From Spirochaetia bacterium (lineage in GTDB: Bacteria; Spirochaetota; UBA4802; UBA5550): a stretch of 64,000 nucleotides of DNA. Made by a program: the position numbers and the translations under genes. The notes beneath the pieces are model-generated. The model ran no database searches. It was given only the letters and a program-made list of their open reading frames with translations, and had not been told where the DNA came from. Positions 2,275 to 56,688 of the stretch are shown here, piece after piece. The DNA lies in assembly GCA_009885955.1 (NCBI GenBank), contig VFJS01000003.1:147086-211085 (forward strand). The letters are read 5' to 3'. Every line of letters starts with the position of its first letter. The first letter of the stretch is position 1.

Positions 2275-2425
2275 ATACCGGGGTCTGCCTCCTTTGAGAG
2301 TGTCCAAATAGTAAATAAAGGATTTGCCACAGAGGCCCTGAGACACAGAGAAGTATTAAGAATTATAAGCTCTTTCCGGAATGTTGGGCAATATAGATAT
2401 TTATAGACTTATCTTTGGAAATATT

Positions 2426-2468
2426 GCCCTCACCCCCGGCCCCTCTCCCGGAATAGGGAGAGGGGTGC
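2426..2468. repeat. GC-rich palindromic repeat, module A copy 1 (GCCCTCACCCCCGGCCCCTCTCCCGGAATAGGGAGAGGGG)
   Basis: Perfect hairpin CCCCTCTCCC/GGGAGAGGGG. The same 40-mer recurs reverse-complemented at 5549-5594 and degenerate at 10561-10602. Confidence 0.8.
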
Positions 2469-5548: not shown

Positions 5549-5594
5549 CCTTCTCCCCTCGCCCTATTCCGGGAGAGGGGCCGGGGGTGAGGGC
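5549..5594. repeat. GC-rich palindromic repeat, module A copy 2 (inverted orientation)
   Basis: Its reverse complement equals GCCCTCACCCCCGGCCCCTCTCCCGGAATAGGGcGAGGGG, nearly identical to 2426-2468. Confidence 0.8.
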
Positions 5595-5631
5595 AGATAG
5601 ATTTGGGCTGTAATCGTTTATCATGATTTGA

Positions 5632-7654: not shown

Positions 7655-7736
7655 GGACCGTAGGTTATTTGGTTATTTGCTTATTATGCGGGCTCCGCCC
7701 GCAGGGGATTTTCAATGGATCCTGGATTTGCTTTTA
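7655..7736 (+). repeat. Direct repeat copy 1 (~75 bp, contains palindrome GCGGGCTCCGCCCGC) flanking a two-gene cassette
   Basis: GGACCGTAGGTTATTTG(GTTATTTG)CTTATTATGCGGGCTCCGCCCGCAGGGGAT...GATTTGCT is repeated at 8496-8568 in the same orientation. Confidence 0.8.
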
Positions 7737-7795: not shown

Positions 7796-8134
7796 TCAAA
7801 GTCTGTGATTCGGTATATAGTTCAAAATATCATCAATGGTAATGTCATAATTGGGCATAATTTTTTCACCTTCATGTTTATGATGCGGGAAGGTTATCAC
7901 CTCTTTATGATGCGGTGAATTATCCCATCTTATAATTAAATCACCGTTAACTTTTTGCCAATGATAGGAATATTTTCTATCGAATTCATCTGAAAATTCC
8001 TTGATGAATAATCGGGTATTATTTAATAATTCAGATTCGATTTTTATAAAAAATCCGGTTTTAAAAACCCGGAAGTCCTGAATTGTATATTTTTTAATGA
8101 TTACCGAGGCATTAAGAGATTTGATAATTTCCAT
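7796..8134 (-). CDS. DUF6516/TumE-like small protein (putative toxin of an addiction-type pair)
   Basis: 112 aa with the motif 'RWDNSPHHKEVITFPHHKH'. This resembles the conserved YDNAPHH...FPHHKH signature I recall for the TumE-like family. It overlaps the upstream small gene by 23 nt. Confidence 0.45.
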   Translation of the reverse strand: MEIIKSLNASVIIKKYTIQDFRVFKTGFFIKIESELLNNTRLFIKEFSDEFDRKYSYHWQKVNGDLIIRWDNSPHHKEVITFPHHKHEGEKIMPNYDITIDDILNYIPNHRL

Positions 8135-8495: not shown

Positions 8496-8568
8496 GGACC
8501 CTTGGTTATTTGCTTATTATGCGGGCTCCGCCCGCAGGGGATGTCCAGGTGAACCTAGATTTGCTAAA
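8496..8568 (+). repeat. Direct repeat copy 2
   Basis: See 7655-7736. Copy 2 lacks the 8-bp internal tandem duplication. Confidence 0.8.
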
Positions 8569-8576
8569 TTAATATA

Positions 8577-8981
8577 TCATTCTATCTTATCAATTAATTT
8601 TTTGATATTTTCCATAAATTTCATTAAATCAGAATAAGACCTGGTTAATTCGCCCTTTGAAAAAACTACAAAATCATCATAATCGCTTTTTGTTCTCAAG
8701 TCATAGGAATTATAAACTATTTCACCAATTTCGTGCGGGACAATGCCGGCCTTTACGAATTCCCTGTTGAACCAGCCGATCAGTTGAAGGTGCTTGGAGG
8801 TTTGGTAATTCTTTTTTAACGCAAACGCCGATAGCAAGTAATAGATACAGTAATATATCCGGTTTGCGGCTGTTTCCAGATAGCCAGTTTTTATTAAGAC
8901 ATCAATTTCAGATATAAGCGCGTCAGCTCTTTTTATGCGATGGGCAATTAAAATACTTTTATCTTCATCACTTAATGTCAT
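8577..8981 (-). CDS. HEPN-domain protein (toxin-like partner of the upstream nucleotidyltransferase)
   Basis: 134-aa all-helical protein. 4-nt ATGA overlap with the MNT gene, the classic HEPN/MNT arrangement. No canonical Rx4-6H motif was seen, so toxicity is uncertain. Confidence 0.6.
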   Translation of the reverse strand: MTLSDEDKSILIAHRIKRADALISEIDVLIKTGYLETAANRIYYCIYYLLSAFALKKNYQTSKHLQLIGWFNREFVKAGIVPHEIGEIVYNSYDLRTKSDYDDFVVFSKGELTRSYSDLMKFMENIKKLIDKIE

Positions 8982-9331
8982 ACGGTAATGCCGCTTTCAA
9001 TGGCCTTTTGAATAAAGGGTTGTTTTCCGCGAATTGTATTAAGCTGGGGTTTCGATATAATTTTTGCGTCAATTATAATATCGTATTTCAAGCTGATATC
9101 ATAACAAATTTTTTTTATATTCGATTCAATAGAAGAGTTAAAGTCTGATAATAATATGATAAGAATATCATAATCTGAATATTCACGGGCAGTTCCGTCA
9201 ATCCTGGATCCGAATAATAAAATATTATCCAGAATGTTTCCAAATGCTTTTAGTAATTCGTTTTTCAGGTCTATTAATAAAATATTATTATCCAATTTTT
9301 TGTTATCCTCGATGATGAATTTCTCTTGCAA
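8978..9331 (-). CDS. Minimal nucleotidyltransferase (MNT/MntA-like antitoxin)
   Basis: 'LLFGSRIDGTAREYSDYDILII' is the GS-x9-DxD polymerase-beta-type NTase motif. Confidence 0.75.
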   Translation of the reverse strand: MQEKFIIEDNKKLDNNILLIDLKNELLKAFGNILDNILLFGSRIDGTAREYSDYDILIILLSDFNSSIESNIKKICYDISLKYDIIIDAKIISKPQLNTIRGKQPFIQKAIESGITV

Positions 9332-9804: not shown

Positions 9805-10200
9805 TTACTTCAAGTTCACTGCCCACTTCCGGATAAATACCGTTATATCCGCCTTGCCAATATCCCCTTTCGTTACTGATAAAACCATTTTCACAAGTTT
9901 ATCCTGTAACACGGTCATATCATATCCATTTGAGATAAGAAATACAAGTGCAGAGGCAACGGCGGTCCGTTTGTTTCCATCGACAAAAGGATGATTTTTA
10001 ACAATATGAAAGAGATATGCCGCAGCAATTTCAAAGAGGTCAGTGTGAAGGAATTCGCCGCCATAGGTGGCAATTGGAATTCCCAGTGCCGATTTAAGCA
10101 ATTCTATATTCCGGATGCCGGGTGAACCTCCATAGCGGGTGACCTGATCTCTATGGATTTCGAGAACTTCAGAAAGACTCAGGAAAGATATCTCTTTCAT
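9805..10200 (-). CDS. doc: Doc/Fic-family toxin (death-on-curing)
   Basis: Fic motif 'HPFVDGNKRTA' (HPFx[DE]GNKR). Confidence 0.85.
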   Translation of the reverse strand: MKEISFLSLSEVLEIHRDQVTRYGGSPGIRNIELLKSALGIPIATYGGEFLHTDLFEIAAAYLFHIVKNHPFVDGNKRTAVASALVFLISNGYDMTVLQDKLVKMVLSVTKGDIGKADITVFIRKWAVNLK

Positions 10201-10602: not shown

Positions 10603-10628
10603 TTGTACATATAAGTTTTGTAATTGAA

Positions 10629-10733
10629 ACCCTCGCCCTACCGGGAGAGGCGACAGGCAGGAGGCCTTAGTGTCGAGCGCGGACAGGATGGCCGAAAAGC
10701 GCTCGACGAACGCGCGGAGCGCGGGTGAGGGCA
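10629..10733 (+). repeat. 105-bp structured GC-rich repeat, module B copy 2
   Basis: 1 mismatch relative to 2578-2682. It ends ~35 nt upstream of the SDR gene start. Confidence 0.85.
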
Positions 10734-52814: not shown

Positions 52815-53963
52815 TTACAGCCCCAGCCCCTTGGATATAATCAATTTCATGATTTCCGATGTCCCTGCATAGATGGTCTGTATCCTGGCATCAGCATAAA
52901 ATCTTGAAATAGGATATTCGGCGCAGTATCCGTAGCCTCCGAAGAGCTGCAGACACCTGTCGGTCACCCGTTTCAGCATTTCGCATACCCAGAGTTTGGC
53001 CATGGAGGTCTCCTGAGTCACATCTTTGCCTGCCATGTGATTTTTTATGAGGTCGTCGGTAAAGCTCCTGCCCACGGCGATTTCTGCCGCAGTTTCAGCC
53101 AGGACAAACTGCGTGTTCTGGAACCGGGATAACTTTTTCCCGAAGGCGCTTCTCTCTTTCACGTAGTCCAGGGTAATCTCCAGGCACCTCTCGGCAGCGG
53201 CCTGGGCGCCCATGGCGCATACCAGCCTTTCCTGCTGAAGTTTCTGCATGAGATAGATGAAGCCCATTCCCTCCATGCCGAGGAGGTTTTCCGAAGGGAT
53301 GATGCAGTCATCAAAGAAGAGTTCTGCCGTGTCCTGGGCGTGGAGGCCTATTTTTTTTATGGGGCCATTCCGTGAAAATCCCGGCGCATCCCTCTCCACG
53401 ACAAAGAGGCTCATGGACTTGTGGAGCGGCGTATCACCGGTGCCGGTCTTTGCCGCAACGACAATGATGTCGGAAATGAGGCCGTTTGATATGAAGGTCT
53501 TCTGGCCGTTCAGCACCCATGAATCGCCGTTTTTTACGGCCCGTGTTCTCATTGACGCAAGGTCGGAACCGGTTTCGGGCTCGGTCATGGCCACGGCAAG
53601 GATGGCGTCGCCGCTTGTGCACCGGGGGAGCCAGCGCATCTTCTGCTCTTCCGTTCCATAAGATGCGATATAGGGGGCCACGATGTCATTATGCATTGCA
53701 ATGAAAAGGCTCCCGAAGCCGGACCGTGCGATCTCCTCTGCGATGATGACCGAGTAGAGGAAATCGGCCCCGTTCCCGCCGTAGGTTTCATCGGCCCAGG
53801 GCACCAGGTAGCCGCTGTCGCCGAATTTTTTCCAGATTTCACGCGGGACCATCCCTGCCGATTCCCACGAGCTGTAGTGATCCGCGGCCTCCCGTGCAAT
53901 GAACCTCCTGAATGTTTCGCGGAAGATGACGTGCTCCTCCAGGAAATTAATTGACCTGTCCAT
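52815..53963 (-). CDS. Acyl-CoA dehydrogenase
   Basis: ACAD N/M/C domain signatures: 'YGGNGADFLYSVIIAEEIAR', 'LNGQKTFISNG', 'QLFGGYGYCAEYPISRFYADARIQTIYAGTSEI'. Confidence 0.9.
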   Translation of the reverse strand: MDRSINFLEEHVIFRETFRRFIAREAADHYSSWESAGMVPREIWKKFGDSGYLVPWADETYGGNGADFLYSVIIAEEIARSGFGSLFIAMHNDIVAPYIASYGTEEQKMRWLPRCTSGDAILAVAMTEPETGSDLASMRTRAVKNGDSWVLNGQKTFISNGLISDIIVVAAKTGTGDTPLHKSMSLFVVERDAPGFSRNGPIKKIGLHAQDTAELFFDDCIIPSENLLGMEGMGFIYLMQKLQQERLVCAMGAQAAAERCLEITLDYVKERSAFGKKLSRFQNTQFVLAETAAEIAVGRSFTDDLIKNHMAGKDVTQETSMAKLWVCEMLKRVTDRCLQLFGGYGYCAEYPISRFYADARIQTIYAGTSEIMKLIISKGLGL

Positions 53964-54022
53964 AGTAACTCCTTGTAGTGAATGTCTTTATGCCCTCATC
54001 AACTTCGACAAGCTCAGTGCAC

Positions 54023-54365
54023 CGCCCGGCCCCTTCTCCCGGCAAGGCTGACTTCTACCCACATTTCTGTAAAAGAAGCACTTTAACCTAAGCCCCCGGC
54101 GGATAGAATCAATTCTTGATTATAACATACTGCCGCCACCCCCGGAGGGGGTTTATTACCATTTTTTTCATTCCAGAAAACGTTTTTCACAAACTATTTA
54201 TATAAAAATATCTGAATTAATGTATTTCACTGCATAAAAAATACTTTTTTTATTAACCCCCTCCGGGGGTGGCCGGAAAAGATTAACACATCATAAAAAT
54301 TCCCTCGGCCGGGGGCTGCTACATAAGATGTGGGTAGAAATCAGCCGGCAGGGAGAAGGGGTGTG
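54023..54365. repeat. ~345-bp composite palindrome with three nested GC-rich inverted-repeat pairs around an AT-rich core
   Basis: Pairs: CCCGGCCCCTTCTCCCGG..CTTCTACCCACAT / ATGTGGGTAGAA..CCGGCAGGGAGAAGGGG; GCCCCCGGC / GCCGGGGGC; GCCACCCCCGGAGGGGGTT / AACCCCCTCCGGGGGTGGC. The outer arms share the CCCCTCTCCCGG-type motif of repeat module A. Confidence 0.8.
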
Positions 54366-54378
54366 GAAAATCAGGCTT

Positions 54379-56067
54379 TTATCCTGTTTTTTTATTACCG
54401 GTGATGATTTTATCAACCTTCCACTTTTTTTCGAAATTGAAAAGGCGTATCCCCTTTTTCTCTGCGGATTCCGCAGGCGGGACCATTGACATGGCCCTTT
54501 CGGTGATTGCGGTTATGGAAAGCGAGGGGTTCACGCCCAGGTTGGCAGGGATCATGGACCCGTCGCAGACCCACATGTTTTTGTATCCGTATACCCTGTT
54601 GGACATGTCGATTACCCCTTCATCAACCGTGGGACCAATGGAGCAGCCTCCAAGGATATGGGCCGTGAGGGGGATGTTGAACAGGGCCTCGTTGATGGAA
54701 CTGCCTGGATATCCATCGATATTTTTTGCCAGAGCCCTGGCAAAGGTGTTGGCAACGGGGATGTGCGAGGGAATTTTTTTGAACCCCGGTTCGTCGCCTG
54801 AGGTCAGGGTTTTTTTAAAGGGATTCAGGAATCCGCGCCTCAGCATGAGCCTGATTCTGTTGTCATAGGTCTGCATGACCAGGAGGATTATTGTCCTTCT
54901 GGCAAAGTCCAGGGGGAATATCCACCTGAGCCATCTCACGGGATGTTTCAAAATCCCGGCTAAATATTGAATCCACCTCGGGGTCTTTCTGTCGCCGTCG
55001 GTCATAATCGAGCTTGATATGAATCCCATGGCGTCGGAGCCCTTTGAGAACCTGACAGGCTCTATGTGGGTATGACTGTCGGGGTGGACGCTCGATGTTA
55101 TTGCCGGGCCACGGGAGAAATCGATGGTCCTGTTTTTTGAATATACTCCCAGGAGCGTCTCGCTGTTGGTCCTGGTGCTCAACCCCAGTGCAGGGGAGAT
55201 GCCGGGCATGATCCCCTTACCCTTCATCCTGAGGAGAAGGTTCACCGTGCCCAGTACACCGGCTGAAAGGACAATCCCTTTCGCTCTGAATTTTTTTCTT
55301 TTTATTATCGAAAGGCCCGTTGTGCCTTTTGCCGTCACCTCGTATCCGGCTGAGCCGTCTTCCGACAGGGGCCGAATCCCTGTCACCGTGGTTTCGCTGA
55401 TAACGGCGGCGCCGAGTTTTTCCGCGAAGTAGAGGTAGTTCTTGTCCAGGGTGTTCTTGGCGTCGAACCTGCAGCCCACCATGCACCCTCCGCAGAAGTT
55501 GCATCCTGTCCTGTCGGGCCCGTCGCCCATGAAATAGGGGTCCTTTACCCTGACGTCGGGGTCGCCGGTGAATATGCCGATTTCCGTGGGGGTGAATGTT
55601 TTTTCTGCGCCGAACTCCCCTGCTGTTTTTTTCATGAGTTCATCCACCTCGCTCAGGTGGGGATTCTGAATGGCCCCGAGCATCCGCTTTGCCAGCTCAT
55701 AGTAGGGGAGGAGGCCCTTTTTCCCGCCCATTTTTTTTACCGTAGAATTTTCAAAGAATTCCGGCAACGGTAGGTAGAGGGTGTTGGCGTAGTTCAGGCT
55801 GCCGCCGCCCACACCGGCGCCTGCGAGAATTGCCACGTCCCTGAGAAACTTTATCCTCCACGTGCCGTAGAGAAAGAGTGACGGGACGAAGAGGTACTTT
55901 CGAAGGTTCCAGTTGGTTTTGGGAAAATCTTCAGGCCTGTACCTTCTGCCGGCTTCAAGGACTGCAACTTTGTATCCCTTCTGCGACAGCCTCATTGCTG
56001 AAACGCTCCCGCCGAATCCCGAGCCTATTATTATAAAGTCGTAATCATATTCACTATCGCGGTTCAT
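54379..56067 (-). CDS. GMC-family FAD-dependent oxidoreductase
   Basis: 'DYDFIIIGSGFGGSVSAMRLSQKGYKVAVLEAG' FAD-binding fold. C-terminal GMC_oxred_C-like region 'GGCSIGPTVDEGVIDMSNRVYGYKNMWVCDGSMIPANLGVNPSLSITAI'. Confidence 0.8.
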   Translation of the reverse strand: MNRDSEYDYDFIIIGSGFGGSVSAMRLSQKGYKVAVLEAGRRYRPEDFPKTNWNLRKYLFVPSLFLYGTWRIKFLRDVAILAGAGVGGGSLNYANTLYLPLPEFFENSTVKKMGGKKGLLPYYELAKRMLGAIQNPHLSEVDELMKKTAGEFGAEKTFTPTEIGIFTGDPDVRVKDPYFMGDGPDRTGCNFCGGCMVGCRFDAKNTLDKNYLYFAEKLGAAVISETTVTGIRPLSEDGSAGYEVTAKGTTGLSIIKRKKFRAKGIVLSAGVLGTVNLLLRMKGKGIMPGISPALGLSTRTNSETLLGVYSKNRTIDFSRGPAITSSVHPDSHTHIEPVRFSKGSDAMGFISSSIMTDGDRKTPRWIQYLAGILKHPVRWLRWIFPLDFARRTIILLVMQTYDNRIRLMLRRGFLNPFKKTLTSGDEPGFKKIPSHIPVANTFARALAKNIDGYPGSSINEALFNIPLTAHILGGCSIGPTVDEGVIDMSNRVYGYKNMWVCDGSMIPANLGVNPSLSITAITERAMSMVPPAESAEKKGIRLFNFEKKWKVDKIITGNKKTG

Positions 56068-56370: not shown

Positions 56371-56688
56371 ATGTATATGAATAAAAAGGATACACATGGC
56401 GTGAATGCTGAAAGGACGGCCCATCATTCTGGGGAGCTGAAGGATAACATACTCAAAAGGCTCGGCAGGATAGAGGGTCAGATACGCGGGATCTCGAGGA
56501 TGGTCAATGAGAATACCTACTGCAACGACGTGCTTCAGCAGATATCATCGGTTGAATCGGCGCTGGACGGTGTCAAGACCGTACTCCTCGAGGCCCACCT
56601 GAGGAGCTGCATCATTGAGCAGATCCGCGATGGGAAGGATGATGTCATGGATGAATTGATTGTAACCCTCAGGAAGTTCATGAGGTAG
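56371..56688 (+). CDS. CsoR/RcnR/FrmR-family metal-sensing transcriptional repressor
   Basis: 'LKRLGRIEGQIRGISRMVNENTYCNDVLQQISSVESALDGV...EAHLRSCI' with the C..H..C ligand pattern of DUF156. Confidence 0.8.
   Translation: MYMNKKDTHGVNAERTAHHSGELKDNILKRLGRIEGQIRGISRMVNENTYCNDVLQQISSVESALDGVKTVLLEAHLRSCIIEQIRDGKDDVMDELIVTLRKFMR

Follow-up and report, generated by a model that had tools for sequence, protein, structure and literature searches.

A large intergenic palindrome in a Spirochaetia genome as a dimer of a REP/BRE-like repeat

What is the unusually large palindrome between the genes of an acyl-CoA dehydrogenase (ACAD) and a GMC-family oxidoreductase in a Spirochaetia genome, and what could it do there? 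The analysed DNA (hereafter the window) was a stretch of 64,000 nt, in which the GMC-ACAD intergenic stretch occupied positions 53964-54378 and both flanking ORFs were on the − strand. There is good support for identifying the palindrome as a dimer of a REP/BRE-like repeat; it is an intergenic repeat of the REP type and not a one-off regulatory device. The features of the locus are given below; module A is a hairpin repeat located elsewhere in the window.

52815-53963, − strand: ACAD ORF, the downstream gene (precomputed Pfam match)
54019-54045, + strand: left outer arm, C-rich (GCACCGCCCGGCCCCTTCTCCCGGCAA), like the 5' half of module A; holds the left arm of I4
54046-54064, + strand: left GGCTGACTTCTACCCACAT box, arm I2; its counterpart is the CTAACAACTACCCACAT box in the PPR_0602 copies L006 and L009
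54093-54151, + strand: left core module, matching model R1 (E 0.0097)
54093-54097, 54098-54137, 54138 and 54139-54151, + strand: parts of the left core, namely C5, P2 (GGCGG...CCGCC), A, and the C5-GGA-G5 hairpin
54152-54256, no strand: AT-rich spacer of 105 nt with 18% GC, its sequence not conserved among dimers
54257-54315, − strand: right core module, inverted relative to the left one and read in the same sense as both neighbouring genes, matching model R1 (E 0.004)
54257-54269, 54271-54310 and 54311-54315, read on the + strand: parts of the right core, namely C5-TCC-G5, P2, and G5
54328-54346, − strand: right GGCTGATTTCTACCCACAT box, arm I2 (repeat finder)
54347-54366, − strand: right outer arm, G-rich on the + strand (GGCAGGGAGAAGGGGTGTGG), like the 3' half of module A; holds the right arm of I4
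54379-54381, − strand: GMC stop codon, 17 nt off the outermost palindrome arm
54379-56067, − strand: GMC-family oxidoreductase ORF, the upstream gene (precomputed Pfam match)
54030-54043 and 54348-54361: arm pair I4, 14 nt, 93% (repeat finder)
54046-54064 and 54328-54346: arm pair I2, 19 nt, 95% (18/19 complementary; repeat finder)
54091-54109 and 54299-54317: arm pair I3, 19 nt, 84% (repeat finder)
54135-54156 and 54252-54273: arm pair I1, 22 nt, 95% (repeat finder)

The palindrome seen in the initial annotation was real, with nested arms and a fold z-score of about −9. The GC-rich inverted-repeat pairs were also present, but the repeat finder returned four of them, covering 54030-54361, and not three. 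The AT-rich centre described earlier was located between the two C5-N3-G5 hairpins, and the inner arms were self-complementary as claimed: both CCCCCGGAGGGGG copies form self-pairing hairpins, and this string occurred twice in the 64 kb (0.12 expected). The palindrome had been said to abut a gene stop, which is close to right given the 17-nt distance to the GMC stop. As RNA, the − strand folded to −157.1 kcal/mol (shuffles, −100.4 ± 6.2; z −9.1, 0/100), and as DNA, the + strand folded to −82.8 (shuffles, −40.1 ± 4.4; z −9.8). At two transition-type arm mismatches, the − (mRNA) strand had G-U where the + strand had A-C, and these two mismatches are a weak hint of selection at the RNA level.

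The ACAD start was 66 nt past the palindrome and was preceded by an AAGGAG ribosome-binding site. No sigma-70-like promoter was called by the scan between GMC and ACAD, nor between the palindrome and the ACAD start, and the terminator scan of 53800-54600 gave zero calls. Since neither a promoter nor a terminator was called between the genes, ACAD is probably transcribed by read-through that starts at the GMC promoter. GMC and ACAD are probably one operon with a ~330-nt hairpin in between, which may set their relative expression. A gene for a CsoR-type metal-sensing repressor (Trns_repr_metal) was found at 56371-56688 (+ strand), divergent from the GMC-ACAD pair, and may be the regulator of the pair.

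Rfam searches with gathering and permissive thresholds, applied to the window, the palindrome region, and ten family loci, gave no family match: the whole window yielded two tRNAs only, and the palindrome region gave weak miRNA-type hairpin matches far under the threshold. The initial annotation had named as refuting its reading the same sequence inside a longer conserved gene or ncRNA; this was looked for and not seen. Small ORFs within the palindrome had no database record by exact look-up.

Each palindrome half carries, with good support, the core module of an intergenic repeat family that is dispersed over many genomes. The core module reads CCCCC-GG[hairpin P2]CC-A-CCCCC-NGA-GGGGG. The 21-nt core CCACCCCCGGAGGGGGTTWAT was scanned exactly in one genome per GTDB species (185,579 species genomes), and it was found at ten loci, only in six Spirochaetota MAGs (ADurb.BinA120, UBA5550, PPR_0600, PPR_0602, and two Leptospirales MAGs). 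Many of these matches sat at contig ends, a position that suggests repeats and gives no copy count. In metagenomes, the scan pattern CCACCCCCNGAGGGGGTT was found at at least 120 loci, with a CCCCCGG box at most 75 nt upstream in 117/173 matches (among the metagenome matches listed). A looser family rule, CCCCC-GG[P2]CC-R-CCCCC-NRA-GGGGG, collected 125 modules in 82 loci of 35-71% GC among the matches listed. The further copies proposed for checking in the initial annotation are thus many in other genomes and metagenomes, but none was found elsewhere in the 64-kb window, which holds this one composite only. Viral contigs gave chance matches only, without the upstream CCCCCGG box, plasmids had nothing matching the whole palindrome, and a literature search with the sequence strings returned nothing relevant.

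Across the family, P2 ranged from 9 to 43 nt. The mean closing stem of 46 distinct P2 sequences was 5.65 bp, compared with 2.77 bp when the interior was shuffled. For the covariation test, P2 was reduced to its five outer pairs and then aligned; 21 two-sided changes were counted (7.2 ± 1.9 in shuffles, 0/500), and the covariation score was 0.235 (at most 0.038 for controls with slid partners). This shows that the P2 helix is kept by compensatory changes while its sequence and length vary. The C5/G5 hairpin never varies and therefore gives no covariation evidence either way. Single modules were no more stable than shuffles (z −0.4 to −2.9), and in their predicted fold G5 switched between pairing with the first and the second C5 run. 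The duplicated C5 run is the oddest conserved feature of the family.

The family copies were intergenic, in either orientation relative to their neighbours, and beside unrelated housekeeping genes. They occurred as singletons, head-to-tail tandem arrays, and tail-to-tail pairs, most members being singletons or direct arrays. Among the ORFs within 2.5 kb of the modules (81 loci), neither a recurrent neighbouring protein family nor a transposase or RAYT was found; the window at 1-11.5 kb also held no transposase or RAYT, and the family copies had no tRNA linkage. Where the upstream gene was co-oriented, about nine copies began 9-24 nt past its stop. Some copies were antisense to both neighbours, and the L010 copy was between divergent genes. 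Inverted pairs recurred with a spacer of 16-111 nt: tail-to-tail pairs between co-oriented genes were found at L008/L052 (argF-argG) and L062, a pair with a 16-nt spacer at L012, and a further one, cut by the contig end, at L006. L008 and L052 were orthologous, with flanking proteins 87-95% identical, modules 83% and 90%, and the spacer 44%. No significant conserved motif was present in the dimer spacers; ATTCAGA was common to three spacers, but a 7-mer shared in this way arose in 30% of shuffles.

The tandem arrays flanked pheT, fba, mnmA, nadA, glnA, and sufBD. In ADurb.BinA120-like (digester) organisms, the head-to-tail arrays had the compact module in 3-6 units of 82-91 nt (L013, 5649-5862; L039, 13214-13425; L042, 1669-2191; L046, 4639-4947). 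Their units were conserved beyond the module, with GATGCCGATGGCC plus CTTTCAA-type heptad repeats, or with TTGGGGTTTCATCCTGCCGATCGGATAGTCCG. The tandem loci are not CRISPR arrays, since the "spacers" are also conserved, and not type III toxin-antitoxin repeats, since the arrays have no neighbouring nuclease gene. Fragments were also considered as hammerhead, twister, T-arm, or tRNA-like sequences, and these readings were rejected: the patterns did not fit, and Rfam was silent.

Beyond the core, both palindrome halves had a GGCTGAYTTCTACCCACAT box (I2) and then a C-rich or G-rich box (I4). The latter, the outer arms, had been annotated as reusing the motif of module A; the two are similar, but not identical (CCCCTTCTCCCGG and CCCCTCTCCCGG, respectively). 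In the PPR_0602 copies (L006, L009), CTAACAACTACCCACAT was at the I2 place with an adjoining C-run or G-run box, and in L045 a box CCCTCTCCCGGAAGGTGACTTC was upstream of the compact core. Because a C- or G-rich box also adjoins an I2-like box in these three loci, the outer arm looks like a part of the element. The comparison suggests that it belongs to the element rather than to the target, which is a better reading than an insertion into module A.

Module A itself (TGCCCTCACCCCCGGCCCCTCTCCCGGAATAGGGAGAGGGG) was present as 41-nt REP-like hairpin copies at 2425-2465 (+ strand) and 5555-5595 (− strand), 98% complementary to each other. The copies bracketed 3.1 kb with metallophosphoesterase and FecR-domain genes and no transposase. 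Like the core module, module A starts with CCCCCGG followed by a C-run/G-run hairpin; it scored weakly with the core model. A 107-nt direct repeat (2576-2682 and 10627-10733, 99% identical, 8 kb apart) had a multi-stem fold closed by CCCUCGCCC/GGGUGAGGG, with z −3.1 on both strands and no match in Rfam. Its 3' end (GGGTGAGGGCA) was the complement of the module A start. In addition, a 64-nt direct repeat (89%; 7669-7732 and 8502-8565) contained the hairpin GCGGGCTCCGCCCGC and adjoined toxin-antitoxin-type genes (TumE, 7796-8134; a HEPN/nucleotidyltransferase pair, 8577-9331; Fic/Doc, 9805-10200).

The orthologous site without the element was sought via the GMC homologues. The closest of these were Leptospiraceae and Spirochaetaceae MAG proteins of at most 63% identity, and no empty site and no synteny were found, since these homologues have different neighbours. 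The homologues indicate that the host is probably of an uncultured Spirochaetota lineage. By exact look-up, the flanking proteins matched short Logan contigs only, all of which stopped inside the palindrome. In the same organism (L001-L005), all four ACAD contigs, which came from four sequencing runs, ended at 54031, and the GMC contig ended at 54293, both positions being within the palindrome. A genomic repeat alone is insufficient to account for the break at 54031, because the 30-mer there takes in the unique flank; the breaks may stem from strain heterogeneity, from a centre that has flipped, or from a drop in coverage.

The closest described relative of the family is BRE (Beta-proteobacterial repeat element), which is ~90 bp long, intergenic, and repeated in tandem a variable number of times (Hot et al. 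2011, BMC Genomics 12:207; PMC3110155). Genes next to BRE are co-oriented or convergent, with 0/13 Bordetella loci divergent (Hot et al. 2011, PMC3110155). No work on BRE later than Hot et al. 2011 was found in the literature search. In reverse complement, the B. pertussis BRE reads CCCCC-ACGCTGCGCCCGCTGTGCGGGCTTGCTG-CCCCCCGAGGGGGC-TTTTTT-GCCTTGGGCGGCCCGCGGCC. At the 63-71% GC loci, the same CCCCCGG-P2-CCACCCCCCGAGGGGGTT was followed by the BRE-type tail GCTTGGGGCGGCCCGGCGC, and a related copy was found on the Acidovorax temperans plasmid pEP1. With nhmmer, a profile of 11 Bordetella BREs matched the pEP1 copy (E 1e-5) and had no match in the window. The alignment forms a chain from the window type through the high-GC type to BRE, and it is by these high-GC copies that the window core appears connected to BRE. 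One high-GC module (L113, 13984-14041, − strand) was between tuf and rpsJ, 9 nt past the tuf stop; this setting resembles the betaproteobacterial str/S10 region, and the module is followed by another hairpin, in which a GCCCGG arm is duplicated.

Several other readings of the palindrome were considered. The initial annotation had proposed a MITE, and a classical one would be a 301-bp element with 19-bp terminal inverted repeats (GGCTGAYTTCTACCCACAT, 54046-54346), inserted in the loop of a module-A REP hairpin with the target GGCA duplicated. Such an insertion is conceivable because the unit bounded by the I2 arms has a GGCA just beyond each end, one at 54041-54044 and the other at 54347-54350. 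Each outer arm corresponds to one half of module A, the I2 arms are complementary in 18/19 positions, and two PPR_0602 copies are ~99% identical over ~125 nt with the loop and the spacer included. However, the C- or G-rich box adjoining the I2-like box in L006, L009, and L045 speaks for arms that are part of the element, and no transposase was found near the copies. One direct repeat of 4 nt, seen at a single site, is weak evidence, with a 1-nt offset on the left, and neither terminal repeats nor duplications of this kind are present at the dimers L008, L052, and L062. The check for TA or target duplications thus yielded a candidate 4-bp GGCA from this single case. A classical MITE is considered unlikely, while the idea of a dispersed repeat is retained in modified form. 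A back-to-back intrinsic terminator, also proposed initially, would stop transcription from either side at the AT-rich centre, since each module ends with a C5-N3-G5 hairpin and a T-rich sequence. T-rich tails (TTTATAAA-like) follow the hairpin in AT-rich genomes, in Bordetella BRE, T6 comes after the hairpin on one strand and the unit ends with T7-9 on the other, copies are often just past stop codons, and in the tail-to-tail layout the sense module comes first from both sides. Here, the sequences after the two C5-N3-G5 hairpins were TTTATTAC and TTAATAAA, the sense-strand tail was UUAAUAAAAAAA, and the window modules lacked the GC-rich stem with a directly following T run that defines an intrinsic terminator. 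The scan around the palindrome found no terminator, and termination would leave ACAD without a called promoter. The 3-6-unit tandem arrays, the doubly antisense copies, and the copy between divergent genes do not fit either, and Comamonadaceae copies have only TT after the hairpin. A classical bidirectional terminator is not supported, and we give it a small chance of being correct.

A DNA-level role would make the palindrome a candidate cruciform, protein-binding palindrome, or recombination site, the AT-rich centre aiding extrusion. E. coli BIMEs are sites for nucleoid, gyrase, or IHF-type proteins. In line with this, the palindrome is long and imperfect and its centre melts easily, the C5-N3-G5 is a 13-bp near-palindrome that could bind a dimer, and the core is unchanged across genomes of 35-71% GC. 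Yet P2 covaries and varies from 9 to 43 nt, so a folded single strand fits better than duplex recognition; most members of the family form no palindrome, being single modules or direct arrays, and the spacers have no significant motif, a shared 7-mer arising in 30% of shuffles. We regard a DNA-level site as very improbable. The same low probability is given to an independent small RNA gene or cis-regulatory RNA, for which the P2 helix is suitably conserved and which has a precedent in the BRE-containing spacer of B. pertussis, the source of the BprJ1 RNA (~80 nt, from a BRE copy) and the Bvg-regulated BprJ2 (~200 nt; PMC3110155). Against it, a promoter-like site is absent from the region, no Rfam family was matched, and the copies have no associated gene family and occur in both orientations.

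The reading preferred here, with confidence only a little on the favourable side, is that the palindrome is a REP/BRE-like repeat dimer that, when transcribed between GMC and ACAD, forms a stable hairpin serving as a decay barrier or attenuator. The extended module would have the order C-rich box, GGCTGAYTTCTACCCACAT, and core CCCCC-GG[P2 hairpin]CC-A-CCCCC-GGA-GGGGG, and the palindrome would be two such modules tail-to-tail with their 3' ends facing. The element may spread, or once have spread, as a non-autonomous repeat whose folded ssDNA is handled by a putative enzyme. Transcribed within the GMC-ACAD message, the two halves would pair into a ~150-bp imperfect hairpin, which could protect the GMC message upstream of it against 3' exonucleases and/or reduce read-through or stability of the ACAD part, and which might be cut by RNase III. 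In E. coli REP/BIME elements, the hairpin blocks 3' exonucleases and favours the upstream cistron. By this analogy, a large intercistronic hairpin could plausibly cause attenuation or stabilise the mRNA. Several observations count against the preferred reading. The L010 copy has divergent neighbours, so that a role at 3' ends would be meaningless there, and there is one composite in the 64 kb, which gives no sign of a high copy number in the source genome. Neither a transposase or RAYT (next to the copies or in the first 11.5 kb of the window) nor an empty orthologous site was found, single modules fold no better than shuffles, the strand evidence comes from two mismatches, and the Bordetella BRE profile has no direct match in the window.

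Small repeats in intergenic DNA influence how operons are expressed and disrupt the assembly of metagenomes, and few families have been characterised outside Proteobacteria. Here, the anatomy of one such family was defined (a C5 run present twice, a hairpin that covaries, and a C5-N3-G5 hairpin), and the family was placed in uncultured Spirochaetota and tied to BRE, a Bordetella/Comamonadaceae repeat of open function since 2011. A wider proposal, which we put forward as doubtful, is that the core CCCCC-[hairpin]-CCCCC-NGA-GGGGG marks a superfamily including BRE and reaching at least Betaproteobacteria and Spirochaetota. Since G5 can pair with either C5 run, the core might adopt a two-state fold or a C+.G-C triple helix, read by a putative protein (ssDNA transposase or RNA-binding factor). 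If a shared core does mean a common handling enzyme or RNA fold, both questions could be tested with one small motif. The locus itself is ordinary; what deserves further attention is the family and its extension over both Betaproteobacteria and Spirochaetota.

Among the known systems, Neisseria Correia elements (NEMIS), which are MITEs, are like the window element in their size (100-350 bp), terminal inverted repeats, and intergenic position, and the transcripts of both are expected to be long hairpins that RNase III could cut. Terminal inverted repeats are formed here by the I2 arms (18/19) and GGCA is present at both ends, which was not seen at the dimers L008, L052, and L062. The window family further differs from MITEs in that the target duplication is a candidate from one site, the members are mostly single modules or direct arrays, and no parent IS is known. 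Rho-independent terminators share with the module a GC hairpin followed by T-rich sequence downstream of genes; for a terminator, the conserved 5' C5 and P2 would be superfluous, and the T tract of the module is weak and its orientation mixed.

REP/REPIN/BIME elements are short GC-rich intergenic hairpin repeats, often in inverted pairs 20-100 bp apart with variable spacers, and the pairs fold separately or as one long hairpin, often near stop codons and sometimes nested in longer palindromes (PMC3733652, PMC12306157). The window element likewise consists of short GC-rich imperfect palindromes and is intergenic only, and the window, L006, L008, L052, L062, and L012 resemble REPINs as inverted doublets with a short spacer and one possible long hairpin. 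The terminal tag GTAG or CGTC of REPs (defined in PMC3733652) was absent from both strands of the aligned modules. A REP/REPIN-RAYT system has tens to hundreds of copies in a genome and a cognate RAYT (Y1/HUH transposase) gene flanked by the repeats; the 64 kb contain one dimer, and no RAYT was found within 2.5 kb of the modules or at 1-11.5 kb of the window. In contrast to REPs, the window family has a bipartite core in which the C5 run is duplicated. REP families are usually lineage-specific, whereas here the same core is present over very different GC contents and apparently in two phyla.

BRE and the window modules, in module orientation, share a 5' C5 run, a variable GC hairpin, a C5-6-NGA-G5 hairpin, and the intergenic position. 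With the wider family, BRE also shares several copies per genome, ~80-91-bp head-to-tail arrays, and location on the 3' sides of genes, and in metagenomes the high-GC copies combine the BRE tail with the window-type CCCCCGG-P2-CCA prefix. Polaromonas sp. JS666 has 29 BREs. The window modules, on the other hand, are without the BRE tail GCYTTGGGCGGCCCG, are AT-rich outside the core, and have a 40-nt P2 and an extra CTACCCACAT box; they form an inverted pair and not a tandem array, in a Spirochaetota-like host. BRE membership is defined by >70% identity to the ~90-bp Bordetella consensus across the greater part of the unit, with which the window has only C5, the hairpin, and C5-NGA-G5 in common. 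As to the head-to-tail arrays typical of BRE, the window has none, and arrays of 82-91 nt exist in the wider family. BRE is intergenic and multi-copy in Betaproteobacteria; the window element is intergenic, with one dimer in the 64 kb, and multi-copy across its family. The element works like a REP dimer (REPIN), shares its core with BRE, and falls outside the strict membership of both.
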